A stretch of 3,393 nt of DNA from Escherichia phage BZ13. The notes below the pieces were generated by a model that was not told the origin of the DNA, ran no database searches, and was given only the letters and a program-made list of their open reading frames with translations. The position numbers and the translations under genes are program-made. This document shows, piece after piece, positions 1,235-3,393 of the stretch (positions are counted from its first letter, which is position 1; every line of letters starts with the position of its first letter). Location: sequence record FJ483838.1, one strand, 5' to 3'.

Positions 1235-1627
1235 ATGGCAACTTTACGTAGTTTCGTACTCGTCGATAATGGCGGTACGGGGAATGTTACTGTCGTTCCT
1301 GTTAGCAATGCCAACGGCGTCGCTGAGTGGCTTTCTAATAACTCGCGCAGTCAAGCTTATCGCGTGACTGCCAGTTATCGTGCGTCAGGCGCGGACAAGC
1401 GCAAATACACCATCAAGCTGGAGGTACCGAAAATCGTTACCCAGACAGTTAATGGTGTTGAGCTGCCTGTTTCCGCATGGAAGGCTTACGCCTCCATTGA
1501 CCTGACCATCCCTATCTTTGCGGCGACCGACGACGTGACTCTTATTTCCAAGTCACTCGCTGGTCTCTTCAAGATTGGGAACCCGGTTGCTGATGCCATC
1601 TCTTCACAGAGTGGGTTCTACGCCTAA
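1235..1627 (+). CDS. cp: Major capsid (coat) protein, 130 codons; levivirus coat fold and RNA operator-binding protein
   Basis: The translation MATLRSFVLVDNGGTGNVTVVPVSNANGVAEW...LTIPIFA...GNP...SGFYA aligns along its whole length with the MS2 coat protein (MASNFTQFVLVDNGGTGDVTVAPSNFANGVAEW...LTIPIFA...GNP...SGIY) and matches the GA coat as I recall it. Length 130 aa, TAA stop at 1625..1627. Confidence 0.95.
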   Translation: MATLRSFVLVDNGGTGNVTVVPVSNANGVAEWLSNNSRSQAYRVTASYRASGADKRKYTIKLEVPKIVTQTVNGVELPVSAWKAYASIDLTIPIFAATDDVTLISKSLAGLFKIGNPVADAISSQSGFYA

Positions 1628-1634
1628 GGCGTAG
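1618..1634 (+). promoter_or_regulatory. Hairpin placing the coat UAA stop codon in its loop (cuacgcc-uaa-ggcguag), just upstream of the lysis start
   Basis: 1618..1624 (ctacgcc) is the reverse complement of 1628..1634 (ggcgtag). The 3-nt loop 1625..1627 is the coat stop TAA. Confidence 0.45.
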
Positions 1635-1644
1635 TTCTTCAGCA

Positions 1645-1839
1645 TTGGGTCAGAAAGCAATTAAACATAAGGAAAACCTATGTTCCGATTCACAGAGATC
1701 AAAAAGACTCTATGTATGGATCGCACTCGCGATTGTGCTGTCCGATTTCACGTCTATCTTCAGTCATTGGATTTGGGGTCTTCTGATCCTCATTCTCCAG
1801 ACTTTGATGGACTTGCCTACCTTCGTGACGAATGTTTAA
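1645..1839 (+). CDS. lys: Lysis protein (L-type single-gene lysis), 64 codons, in a third frame spanning the coat-replicase junction; start codon uncertain (apparent UUG)
   Basis: The frame is open from the TGA at 1591..1593 to the TAA at 1837..1839. It encodes a basic N-terminal region followed by a hydrophobic segment LYVWIALAIVLSDFTSIF..WIWGLLILIL that resembles the MS2 L protein segment LYVLIFLAIFLSKFT. It has the canonical levivirus L position, overlapping the replicase 5' end out of frame. There is no in-frame ATG or GTG; the first usable start is the TTG at 1645. Confidence 0.7.
   Translation: MGQKAIKHKENLCSDSQRSKRLYVWIALAIVLSDFTSIFSHWIWGLLILILQTLMDLPTFVTNV
1665..1683 (+). promoter_or_regulatory. 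Coat-protein translational operator hairpin containing the replicase SD and AUG (ACAUA-A-GG-AAAA-CC-UAUGU)
   Basis: Stem 1665..1669 pairs with 1679..1683, A1670 is unpaired, GG 1671..1672 pairs with CC 1677..1678, and the loop is AAAA 1673..1676. The replicase AUG is 1680..1682 and the SD AAGGA is 1669..1673. This is the same architecture as the MS2 operator (ACAUG-A-GG-AUUA-CC-CAUGU), with A at loop position -5 as reported for GA-type operators. Confidence 0.8.
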
Positions 1840-3278
1840 CTAAACATCCTTCACTTGGAGACAGTAATTCGGATGCACTCCGTAAGGAATTGGCATATGC
1901 CAAACTTATGGATAGTGATCAAAGATGCAAAATCCAAAACAGTAACGGATACGACCTGAGTCATATCGACTCTGGCGTACTTAACGGCATATTACTAACC
2001 GCTAAGGCTTCAATAGCGAAGTTACTTATGGGCTTTGAATCTCACTTCCTGAACGATTGTTCATTCTCCAATGGAGCCTCACAAGGGTTCAAGTTGCAGG
2101 ATGCAGCGCCGTTTAAGAAGATCGCTGGGCAAGCAACCGTTACAGCTCCTGCTTATGACCTAGCCGTGCACGCAGTTAAAACTTGCGGACCATGGCTTCG
2201 TTATATGCAGGAAACGTATGGCGATGAGACCAGATGGTTTCGTCGGGTATACGGAAACGGTTTGTTTTCTGTTCCGAAGAACAATAAAATAGATCGGGCT
2301 GCCTGTAAGGAGCCTGATATGAATATGTATCTTCAGAAAGGTGCTGGCTCTTTTATTAGACGCCGACTCCGATCTGTGAACATTGATCTTAACGATCAAA
2401 CACGCAATCAGGAATTGGCCCGACTTGGCAGCATTGATGGTTCGCTTGCTACTATTGATTTAAGTAGTGCTAGCGATTCCGTCTCTGATCGCCTCGTCTG
2501 GGATTTACTTCCGCCGCATGTTTATTCATATCTCCACCGTATCCGCTCATCTTTCACTATGATCGATGGGCAGTTACATAAGTGGAACCTATTTTCTACG
2601 ATGGGTAACGGTTTTACATTCGAGCTCGAGTCCATGATATTTTGGGCTCTGAGTAAGAGTGTAATGTCGTACCTCGGTGTTACTGGCTTACTTGGCATCT
2701 ATGGAGACGATATAATCGTCCCCACGAAATGCGCACCCCTTCTTCTACAGGTATTATCGGCTGTGAACTTTCTTCCTAACCAGAAGAAGACGTTTACTAC
2801 CGGTTATTTCCGTGAGAGTTGTGGGGCACATTTCTTTAAAGGTGCTTCAGTAAAACCTTTTTACTGCAAGCGGCCGATGGAAACCCTTCCCGATATTATG
2901 TTACTCTGTAACAGAATTCGTGGTTGGGGTACTATCGGGGGAATATCAGACCCTCGACTCTTTCCAATATGGAAGGAGTTTGCAGATATGATACCGCCTA
3001 AGTTTAAGGGTGGATGTAACCTTGATCGCGACACTTACCTTGTTTCACCGGATAAACCTGGTAAAACATTAGTTCGTGTTGCGAAGAAACGAAGTGGTTT
3101 TAACCATAAGTTTCGTAGTGACTATGAAAATGGTCGCTATATTCATTGGTTACATATGGGATCGGGCGAAGTGCTCGAAACTATATCTTCCGCCAGGTTT
3201 AGGTGCAAACCTAATTCGGAATGGAGGACACAGATCCCGCTATTTCCTCAGGAAATAGAGGCCTGCGTTCTCTCCTGA
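1680..3278 (+). CDS. rep: RNA-dependent RNA polymerase (replicase beta subunit), 532 aa
   Basis: Largest ORF and last in gene order. Contains RdRp motif A (IDLSSASDS, Asp codons at 2457..2459 and 2475..2477), a motif B-like region (SMGNGFTFELES) and motif C YGDD at 2700..2711. Size equals the GA replicase as I recall it. TGA stop at 3276..3278. Confidence 0.95.
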   Translation: MFRFTEIKKTLCMDRTRDCAVRFHVYLQSLDLGSSDPHSPDFDGLAYLRDECLTKHPSLGDSNSDALRKELAYAKLMDSDQRCKIQNSNGYDLSHIDSGVLNGILLTAKASIAKLLMGFESHFLNDCSFSNGASQGFKLQDAAPFKKIAGQATVTAPAYDLAVHAVKTCGPWLRYMQETYGDETRWFRRVYGNGLFSVPKNNKIDRAACKEPDMNMYLQKGAGSFIRRRLRSVNIDLNDQTRNQELARLGSIDGSLATIDLSSASDSVSDRLVWDLLPPHVYSYLHRIRSSFTMIDGQLHKWNLFSTMGNGFTFELESMIFWALSKSVMSYLGVTGLLGIYGDDIIVPTKCAPLLLQVLSAVNFLPNQKKTFTTGYFRESCGAHFFKGASVKPFYCKRPMETLPDIMLLCNRIRGWGTIGGISDPRLFPIWKEFADMIPPKFKGGCNLDRDTYLVSPDKPGKTLVRVAKKRSGFNHKFRSDYENGRYIHWLHMGSGEVLETISSARFRCKPNSEWRTQIPLFPQEIEACVLS

Positions 3279-3289
3279 TAGTATCAGGA
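3273..3289 (+). promoter_or_regulatory. Hairpin embedding the replicase UGA stop codon (ucctga-uagua-ucagga)
   Basis: 3273..3278 (tcctga) pairs with 3284..3289 (tcagga), with loop 3279..3283. Confidence 0.35.
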
Positions 3290-3387: not shown

Positions 3388-3393
3388 CACCCA

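Follow-up and report, generated by a model that had tools for sequence, protein, structure and literature searches.

Introduction

In enterobacterial leviviruses generally, translation of the lysis gene is stated to depend on translation of the coat gene and on its termination (PMC3561173), and termination-coupled expression is the accepted model for the lysis genes of the coliphages MS2 and fr (PMC12548453). The L gene of MS2 (Berkhout et al., 1987; Schmidt et al., 1987) encodes a small membrane lysis protein from an AUG located 50 nt upstream of the coat stop codon; this start is shut by RNA structure and activated when coat translation terminates, and for the wild-type geometry an unfolding model is favored (PMC12548453). 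In the group I phage fr (Adhin and van Duin, 1989, 1990), the lysis gene begins with UUG, its wild-type start precedes the coat stop codon by 38 nt, and expression is likewise coupled to coat termination. In engineered fr constructs, reinitiation was seen at starts +23 and +35 nt past the stop codon, with the start nearest to the stop favored (PMC12548453).

Closer to the genome described here are the group II phages GA, JP34, DL10, and DL20, in which the lysis AUG overlaps the coat stop codon by 1 nt (UAAUG), and KU1 (AF227250). The KU1 insertion, which displaced the lysis start, gave Groeneveld, Oudot and van Duin (1996, Virology 218:141) the title of their paper; PMC12856241, which cites it, names UUG as the initiator in both fr and KU1.

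Results

A group II genome with a displaced lysis start

The window is the whole 3,393-nt stretch of Escherichia phage BZ13 analyzed here (FJ483838.1), from which about 90 nt of the genome 5′ end are absent. It aligns over 100% of its length with KU1 at 90.9% nucleotide identity and with GA, DL10, and DL20 at 85-86%, and its gene order of maturation, coat, lysis, and replicase, taken from the list of open reading frames, is as expected for Emesvirus japonicum. It therefore belongs to the group II F-specific RNA coliphages (Emesvirus japonicum), as phage BZ13 of the KU1 sublineage. By inference, the strain is T72, the third group II strain in the study that includes DL10 and DL20 (PMC3499819); the accessions of the matching coat, lysis, and replicase proteins, ACT66722 to ACT66724, lie between those of the latter two strains. 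The features around the coat-lysis junction, with their basis in parentheses, are:

1235..1627, + strand: coat protein CDS, 130 aa, stop codon UAA at 1625-1627 (open reading frame; product identical to capsid protein ACT66722.1; corresponds to KU1 CDS 1325..1717)
1628..1645, + strand: KU1-type 18-nt insertion GGCGUAGUUCUUCAGCAU relative to GA-type genomes (alignment with KU1, GA, DL10, and DL20)
1645..1839, + strand: lysis protein CDS, 64 aa, an L-like single-gene lysis protein (open reading frame; exact match to ACT66723.1; equivalent of the KU1 CDS)
1660..1662, + strand: second insertion, 3 nt, relative to GA-type genomes (alignments)
1664..1684, + strand: replicase translational operator hairpin containing the replicase Shine-Dalgarno (SD) sequence (AAGGA) and AUG 1680 (fold; GA annotation 'pot. 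binding site coat protein')
1680..3278, + strand: replicase beta subunit CDS, 532 aa (open reading frame; product identical to ACT66724.1)

The insertion GGCGUAGUUCUUCAGCAU splits the ancestral start codon of the UAAUG overlap between its A and its UG: the U of UUG 1645 is the last base of the insertion, and the following UG is the same UG that completes the AUG of GA, DL10, and DL20. The distance from the coat stop codon to the replicase AUG is 52 nt in the window versus 31 nt in GA-type genomes. The insertion would have entered the coat-stop/lysis-start overlap in an ancestor of the KU1 sublineage, pushing the UG 18 nt downstream.

KU1 has the identical insertion at the same site, together with the hairpin described below, the UUG, and a lysis product of the same length of 64 aa (AAF67675.1). 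Its 131-nt junction region differs from the window by one base and its lysis protein is 95% identical, whereas the remaining genome is 9% diverged; the two are separate isolates of one sublineage. One difference falls in the 3-nt insertion at 1660..1662, which supplies lysis protein residue 6: Ile in the window, Phe in KU1, and Asn in the genomes L009, L023, and L029. The GA-type phages have orthologous lysis genes with proteins 94-95% identical to that of the window and presumably also rely on coat termination; unlike the window, they have neither the insertion nor a hairpin around the stop codon.

The displaced UUG start is thus already known from KU1 and from the GenBank annotation. The sequence-only reading had treated the start codon as an open question and pointed to the GA and KU1 lysis starts for comparison; the KU1 start was published in 1996, KU1 CDS 1735..1929 maps exactly onto window positions 1645..1839, and GA, DL10, and DL20 share the UG of the window start within their UAAUG overlap.

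The lysis gene begins at a UUG with no usable SD sequence

The lysis CDS runs from UUG 1645-1647 to a UAA at 1837-1839 and shares sequence with the replicase gene from 1680 on. Its 64-aa product is annotated from UUG 1645 in this genome (ACT66723.1), and the open reading frame, the KU1 CDS, and this record all bear out the placement of the start 18 nt past the coat stop codon, counting from the last base of UAA to the first base of UUG (17 nt intervene). The protein matches Pfam family PF11125 (Phage_MS2_lysis), which includes MS2 L, with a score of 29.7 bits, above the cut-off of 25 (E = 6.3e-7). L-like lysis proteins have been defined by a basic N-terminus, a hydrophobic stretch, a Leu-Ser motif, and a variable C-terminus (PMC10229422), and by inspection the window protein follows this layout, with a basic N-terminus MGQKAIKHKENLCSDSQRSKR, the hydrophobic segment LYVWIALAIV, an LS motif, and a variable C-terminus beginning DFTSIF; its N-terminal region differs from that of fr. 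Toxicity-suppressor screens that included the KU1 lysis gene among other Sgl genes were preceded by measurement of the lytic activity of all strains (PMC10229422), which indicates that the protein 95% identical to that of the window causes lysis when expressed alone. The open reading frame is intact in 31 of 31 group II genomes, and variable third positions of replicase codons are fewer under the lysis overlap (4/53) than beyond it (11/39; p = 0.011).

UUG 1645 is the earliest AUG, GUG, UUG, CUG, or AUH codon in the lysis frame, which is open from 1594, just after an in-frame UGA at 1591-1593. The description of UUG 1645 as the sole possible initiator therefore stands for the 5′ end of the frame but not for its whole length, in which AUU 1660, GUG 1735, and AUG 1807 follow; initiation at these codons would give a protein whose N-terminal region is shortened or absent, or one with most of its length gone. 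An open frame upstream and start-like codons at 1660 and 1735 leave room in principle for an internal start or a coat-lysis frameshift fusion. We consider either exceedingly improbable and rejected both on the codon scan and the N-terminal alignment: the window protein aligns with GA-type proteins from residue 1, those proteins begin with an AUG at the homologous UG, and among related genomes position 1645 is U, C, or A, whereas 1646-1647 do not change. Moreover, starting at GUG 1735 would leave a protein with no basic N-terminal domain and a shortened hydrophobic one, the segment 1594-1644 holds no start-capable codon, and 1594-1625 contains no slippery sequence by eye. UUG 1645 is, then, very likely the initiator of the 64-aa lysis protein.

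Pairing to the anti-SD sequence agrees with the earlier remark that this start has no convincing SD. The nearest AAGG (1626-1629) lies 15 nt 5′ of the UUG, half of it inside a hairpin stem, and we found no usable SD for UUG 1645 in 1630-1644, where pairing of 9-nt windows with the anti-SD does not exceed about -4 kcal/mol in strength; the replicase SD reaches -6.2 kcal/mol. A further candidate was an SD bridged by structure, GAGUGGG at 1609-1615, which a hairpin would bring to about 13 nt from the UUG (12 nt in GA). It was ruled out: the motif is itself paired in that hairpin (P2, below), its distance from the UUG is too great, and the synonymous GAGCGG stands in its place in several GA-type genomes.

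The start codon lies in the closing stem of a predicted three-way junction

Folding places the coat stop codon and the lysis start in a common structure with these elements:

1581..1593, + strand: P1, 5′ strand of the predicted closing stem, within coat codons, pairs with 1639-1650 (minimum free energy (MFE) and centroid folds, pairing probabilities)
1596..1614, + strand: hairpin P2 at the coat 3′ end (fold; also predicted for GA)
1618..1634, + strand: hairpin P3, a 7-bp stem CUACGCC/GGCGUAG closing a 3-nt loop formed by the coat UAA (sequence reading; fold)
1639..1650, + strand: P1, 3′ strand UCAGCAUUGGGU, which contains the UUG start (pairing probabilities)

P3 had been noticed in the sequence-only reading, and its coordinates and perfect pairing hold up: the arms 1618-1624 and 1628-1634 are exact reverse complements, the 3′ arm being the first 7 nt of the insertion. 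Folded alone it reaches -9.3 kcal/mol, whereas shuffles average -1.8 (z = -4.5; 0/200 shuffles as good), and it is present in all longer contexts folded. The window contains about five distinct perfect 7-bp hairpins (seven overlapping matches) where shuffles average 1.16. Since one such hairpin in 3.4 kb is about what chance provides, the significance of P3 lies in its position and conservation.

A 76-nt three-way junction, with P3 as an arm, is predicted across 1578-1653 (MFE -31.4 kcal/mol, z = -3.65, 0/200 shuffles as good). In this fold, 13-14 of the 18 inserted nucleotides are paired: the leading 7 nt with the final codons of the coat gene, and UCAGCA with a coat-gene UGCUGA. P2 is homologous to a feature of the GA record (1683..1707) annotated 'pot. 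stem loop structure; pot. function in lysis gene control', the closing stem ACCC/GGGU is also shared with GA-type phages, and the homologous GA fold has a similar score (z = -3.77), with the A and U of the GA AUG predicted to be unpaired. In the window, folded in the context 1480-1800, the UUG is predicted to be almost wholly paired (probability of being unpaired 0.09 for U1645, 0.01-0.02 for U1646, and 0.00 for G1647), and opening positions -3 to +6 around it would cost about 10 kcal/mol.

The fold therefore predicts that P1, the closing stem lengthened by the insertion, buries the start codon. This bears on the earlier suggestion that ribosomes melt the 7-bp hairpin on finishing the coat gene and then reinitiate: in the predicted structure, the stem 1581-1593/1639-1650 covers the UUG, so P1 rather than P3 probably sets access, and control of access by P3 is unlikely. 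A covariation test of the junction on seven distinct sequences gave no pair changed on both sides and pair-count statistics equal to those of shuffles, and the natural variants L007, L029, L011, and L030 lose two to three P1 pairs without obvious harm. The Rfam search gave no match for the coat/lysis junction structure; the neighboring MS2 operator family (RF02359) gave a weak sub-threshold match at 1652-1683 (18.8 bits, gathering score 40).

An invariant insertion and a variable start codon

Among 31 group II genomes, whose diversity came mostly from exact coat-protein look-ups (pattern scans of IMG/VR and JGI yielded 4 and 2 contigs), 18 bear the insertion, and all 18 fall in a single clade. 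P3 is identical in every one of them. Counting variation by site class in 17 genomes, the noncoding segment 1628-1644 has 0/17 variable sites versus 51/130 coat third positions (39%; Fisher p = 6.5e-4, only approximate because the genomes compared are related).

The start triplet of the 18 insert-bearing genomes is UUG in 15, AUG in two, and CUG in one (L009, known from one assembled contig); the first base alone varies. These metagenomic start-codon variants postdate the 1996 KU1 paper. In L011 and L030, the AUG is predicted to lie within a partly open internal loop (probability unpaired 0.5-0.6). The predicted opening cost is 13.2 kcal/mol for the CUG allele, 10.1 for the majority UUG allele, and 6.2-7.9 for the AUG alleles, with other UUG variants at 6.1-10.4, and codon strength and predicted start opening go in the same direction in this sample.

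The insertion may have built a start-locking three-way junction that is held by selection, with the first base of the triplet as a variable dial on which AUG would have been regained at least once and CUG reached once. We offer this reading tentatively and lean somewhat against it; were it true, wild populations would tune the dosage of lysis protein, and hence the timing of lysis, at one nucleotide. Conservation of the insert could also serve other needs, such as selection against unpaired RNA, replication, or packaging.

Discussion

Coat-coupled reinitiation appears to be the best-supported mechanism for UUG 1645. The start lies close to an upstream stop codon, at +18 nt, near the +23 and +35 nt of the fr constructs, and it seems intrinsically defective, with no SD, a UUG codon, and predicted pairing that would cost about 10 kcal/mol to open. 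On free RNA, a start that has no SD and is closed in the three-way junction would be blocked to independent ribosome loading. A ribosome on the last 15 coat codons would open all three helices, and after UAA 1625-1627 some ribosomes would remain on the RNA, travel about 18 nt, and restart at the UUG, the first start-like codon they reach. Reinitiation by a fraction of ribosomes would make lysis protein a small fixed share of coat translation, and this low share would put lysis off until late infection. We infer both the coupling in this strain and reinitiation by the same ribosome; the overall account, of insertion, UUG start, junction, and coupled reinitiation, is one that we consider probable. 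MS2 L, the precedent first named for this locus, holds for the coupling, which is established there, but not for the geometry, for which closer models are GA (stop-start overlap), fr (UUG), and the fr constructs with starts at +23 and +35.

Coupling might instead operate by unfolding only, with coat ribosomes opening the junction and a fresh 30S subunit initiating at the exposed UUG. This model was put forward for wild-type MS2, where the spacing is -50 nt (PMC12548453), and it fits a predicted structure that hides the start and would be opened by coat translation. At +18 nt, however, there is no SD to attract a free 30S subunit, UUG is weak for de novo initiation, and a ribosome at the UAA, judging from footprint size, would cover the RNA to within a few nucleotides of the UUG and sterically compete with the 30S. 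When fr and MS2 constructs placed starts a short distance past the stop codon, the nearest one was used, which argues for scanning (PMC12548453), and we regard unfolding alone as distinctly unlikely here. Less probable still, and very doubtful, is low-level loading at UUG 1645 independent of coat translation, with the hairpin and stem merely setting its level. The AUG of L011 and L030 in a partly open loop and the predicted unpaired A and U of the GA AUG would suit such loading, but the window start lacks an SD and is paired, at about 10 kcal/mol to open, and coupling is reported for related coliphages (PMC12548453, PMC3561173).

Another possibility concerns the role of P3 alone and is compatible with coupling: P3 may have no specific role in lysis control, the insertion being kept since it is base-paired and the stop codon in the loop being a by-product of where the insertion landed. 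RNA phage genomes purge unstructured inserts, and pairing shields RNA from RNases; Olsthoorn and van Duin reportedly described selection against single-stranded inserts in MS2 in 1996. The pairing of 13-14 of 18 inserted nucleotides and the several other perfect 7-bp hairpins in the genome fit this picture. So does the expectation that a ribosome with UAA in its A site has already melted P3, in which case the placement of the stop codon in the loop could not influence termination itself. The full invariance of 1628-1644 across 17 genomes, however, exceeds what a generic stem would need, as compensated changes would be tolerated, and we judge a P3 without specific function unlikely, though a more serious contender than the preceding two. 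Coat-coupled reinitiation at UUG 1645 is our preferred reading with either view of P3.

Relative to the title of the 1996 KU1 paper and the sentence citing it, what is added here is the predicted three-way junction with P1 over the UUG, the insert-bearing clade, the invariant 17 nt, and the UUG, AUG, and CUG alleles. As a discovery this carries small weight. It is useful as a worked example of a random insertion that broke the AUG of a stop-start overlap in a 3.4-kb RNA genome, in which the gene would have survived through an adjacent U and ribosomes able to restart shortly downstream. The invariant noncoding insert, the predicted stem, and the three start alleles provide testable handles on the timing of lysis in RNA phages.

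No second copy of the 18-nt insertion occurs in the genome on either strand with up to three mismatches. By eye, the insertion reads as the reverse complement of 1618-1624, followed by UUCU, the reverse complement of 1588-1593, and U. Such an arrangement might reflect a copy-back origin or no more than selection for pairing.

Genome context and reality of the lysis gene

With its four genes the window is organised like an F-specific levivirus, and it matches a deposited, annotated record: exact-sequence look-up returned its coat, lysis and replicase products as ACT66722.1, ACT66723.1 and ACT66724.1, from a single 3393-nt NCBI record. These accessions fall between the proteins of two BZ13 strains, DL10 (ACT66717-20) and DL20 (ACT66725-28), and the remaining group II strain of the study of DL10 and DL20 is T72, FJ483838 (PMC3499819), which points to the window as the T72 record. 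Among the group II reference genomes, identity is 90.9% to KU1 along the entire window, from KU1 position 91 onward, and 85-86% to GA, DL10, and DL20. About 90 nt of 5' untranslated region are absent from the record, the first base corresponding to KU1 position 91; the 3' end is complete, with final bases CCCA (position 3393). An ORF listed from GTG 17 is an artefact of the 5' truncation, and AUG 47 is where the maturation gene begins.

Genes of the window (ORF list)
47-1219, + strand: maturation gene, from AUG 47 (equivalent start at KU1 137)
1235-1627, + strand: coat gene
1645-1839, + strand: lysis frame, 64 codons
1680-3278, + strand: replicase gene

The lysis gene called by the sequence-only reading is real. 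Its product exceeds the Pfam cut-off for the MS2 lysis family, has an L-like layout (basic N-terminus, hydrophobic stretch, Leu-Ser), and shares 94-95% identity with the KU1, GA, JP34, and DL10 proteins in alignments that begin at residue 1, and none of the 31 group II genomes and contigs collected has a disrupted ORF. Across 17 genomes, replicase third positions show about fourfold lower variability under the lysis overlap (4/53 in 1680-1839) than beyond it (11/39 in 1840-1956; p = 0.011). The KU1 protein was included among the single-gene lysis (Sgl) genes in toxicity-suppressor screens, for which, according to the methods, the lytic activity of all strains was measured beforehand (PMC10229422).

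Origin and conservation of the displaced start

The displaced UUG start is a known feature that the record of this sequence already annotates, and our additions are modest: a predicted stem enclosing the UUG, evidence that the noncoding insert is under purifying selection, and natural UUG/AUG/CUG alleles. Open from 1594, the lysis frame has UUG 1645 as its earliest start-like codon, with AUU 1660, GUG 1735, and AUG 1807 as later in-frame candidates. Comparison with the annotated starts agrees with UUG 1645: the KU1 lysis CDS (1735..1929) corresponds exactly to window 1645..1839, and the AUG of GA-type genomes shares the same UG. A 2026 paper cites the 1996 KU1 paper of Groeneveld, Oudot and van Duin for UUG as the KU1 initiator (PMC12856241). 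The GA-type junction reads ...UAC GCG UAAUGGGUC, the lysis AUG sharing one base with the coat UAA. In an alignment of KU1, GA, DL10, and DL20 with the window, an 18-nt insert, GGCGUAGUUCUUCAGCAU (1628-1645), identical in the window and KU1, splits the GA-type A from UG, and its final U plus the ancestral UG make the UUG start. The insert can be read, in order, as the reverse complement of 1618-1624, UUCU, the reverse complement of 1588-1593, and U. A second insertion relative to GA-type genomes, 3 nt at 1660-1662 immediately 5' of the replicase operator hairpin, adds lysis protein residue 6, the clade's most variable residue (Ile, Phe, or Asn).

Pattern scans and exact coat-protein look-ups yielded 26 further contigs from metagenomes; with the window and four reference genomes (GA twice), 18 sequences bear the insert and 13 are GA-type. 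In a neighbour-joining tree of coat genes, all 17 genomes that have both the insert and a complete coat gene group as one clade, which indicates that the insertion arose once and was inherited thereafter. Coat sequences in this clade differ by up to 8.4%, with 51/130 third positions variable; the noncoding bases between coat stop and UUG vary at 0/17 positions in the 17 genomes (Fisher p = 6.5e-4). The eighteenth genome (L011) has C1643 changed to U in this spacer, keeping a G-U pair. For the last Ala of the coat, GA-type genomes use GCG, GCC, or GCU, and genomes in which this codon has to pair with the insert's first G invariably use GCC. Only the first base of the start triplet varies among the 18 (UUG in 15, AUG in two, CUG in one), so that natural variation supports initiation at 1645-1647. 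All three are usable as bacterial start codons, CUG rarely.

Start alleles of insert-bearing metagenome contigs, equivalent to window 1645-1647
L009 1730-1732: CUG (Logan SRR9899372)
L030 834-836: AUG (CAGCAAUGGG)
L011 395-397: AUG (OGVH01001890.1, CAGUAAUGGG)

L030 and L009 are nested among UUG genomes. The nearest relative of L011 is L030 but not the reverse, so the AUG allele may have arisen once or twice. The L011 AUG recreates a UAAUG motif, whose UAA lies in the coat frame six codons beyond the real stop.

Predicted RNA structure around the start

The region 1578-1653 is predicted to fold as a 76-nt three-way junction (-31.4 kcal/mol, z = -3.65, 0/200 shuffles as good).

Helices of the predicted fold
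1581-1587 and 1589-1593, paired with 1639-1650: P1, closing stem
1596-1614: P2, hairpin labelled 'pot. function in lysis gene control' in the GA record
1618-1634: P3, the stop-codon hairpin of the sequence-only reading

The UUG lies inside P1; its three bases have unpaired probabilities of 0.09, 0.01-0.02, and 0.00, which hold within 320 nt of context as well. Freeing -3..+6 around the start is predicted to cost about 10 kcal/mol. The insert supplies two pairing segments, GGCGUAG, which forms P3, and UCAGCA, which lengthens P1. A homologous fold of 58 nt is predicted in GA (z = -3.77), where an internal loop holds the first two bases of the AUG. Between alleles the predicted cost of opening differs: it is 13.2 kcal/mol in the CUG variant, 6.2 and 7.9 in the two with AUG, and between 6.1 (L007) and 10.4 (L029) in other UUG variants. 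A covariation test on seven distinct sequences gave no double-sided change and statistics equal to those of shuffles, so the case for this structure is one of energy and conservation. The replicase operator (1652-1683) gave a sub-threshold match to the Rfam MS2 operator model RF02359 (18.8 bits vs a gathering score of 40); this curated model fails to recognise the group II operator.

Expression of the lysis gene

No useful pairing with the 16S 3' end was found upstream of UUG 1645, and AAGG 1626-1629 lies 15 nt before it, half within the P3 stem, in agreement with the earlier view that no convincing Shine-Dalgarno sequence is present. With this lack, a weak codon, and a predicted stem whose other strand is inside the coat gene, free ribosomes would rarely initiate at the UUG. 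A ribosome reading the last 15 codons of the coat gene would open P1, P2, and P3 and, at the UAA, would have the UUG merely 18 nt ahead. In fr constructs, coat-terminating ribosomes restart at +23 or +35 nt, and it is the closest start that they select (Adhin and van Duin 1990, reviewed in PMC12548453). Coupling to coat translation is also described for the lysis genes of enterobacterial leviviruses (PMC3561173). Taken together, the weak start and its predicted burial, its spacing, the fr restarts, and the coupling described in leviviruses make termination-reinitiation, as the sequence-only reading proposed, the best explanation for lysis expression; a weaker variant would be that the structure unfolds and a fresh 30S then enters at the UUG.

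P3 itself is probably not the control element. The hairpin is as described, all coordinates being correct: CUACGCC (1618-1624) and GGCGUAG (1628-1634) are exact complements flanking the coat UAA (1625-1627), and the isolated hairpin (-9.3 kcal/mol, z = -4.5) is retained in all larger contexts folded. P3 would already be melted when the stop reaches the A site, leaving the position of the stop codon in the loop without evident effect on termination, and P3 may be kept mainly because these genomes tolerate paired inserts. About five distinct perfect 7-bp hairpins occur in the 3.4 kb against 1.16 expected in dinucleotide-preserving shuffles, a total about five times that of shuffles and in line with the extensive structure of an RNA phage genome; since about one would arise by chance, the significance of P3 comes from its position and conservation rather than its existence. 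The four other perfect hairpins (stems of at least 7 bp, short loops) lie at 21-38, 2848-2866, 3240-3258, and 3273-3289, the last including the replicase stop UGA (3276-3278).
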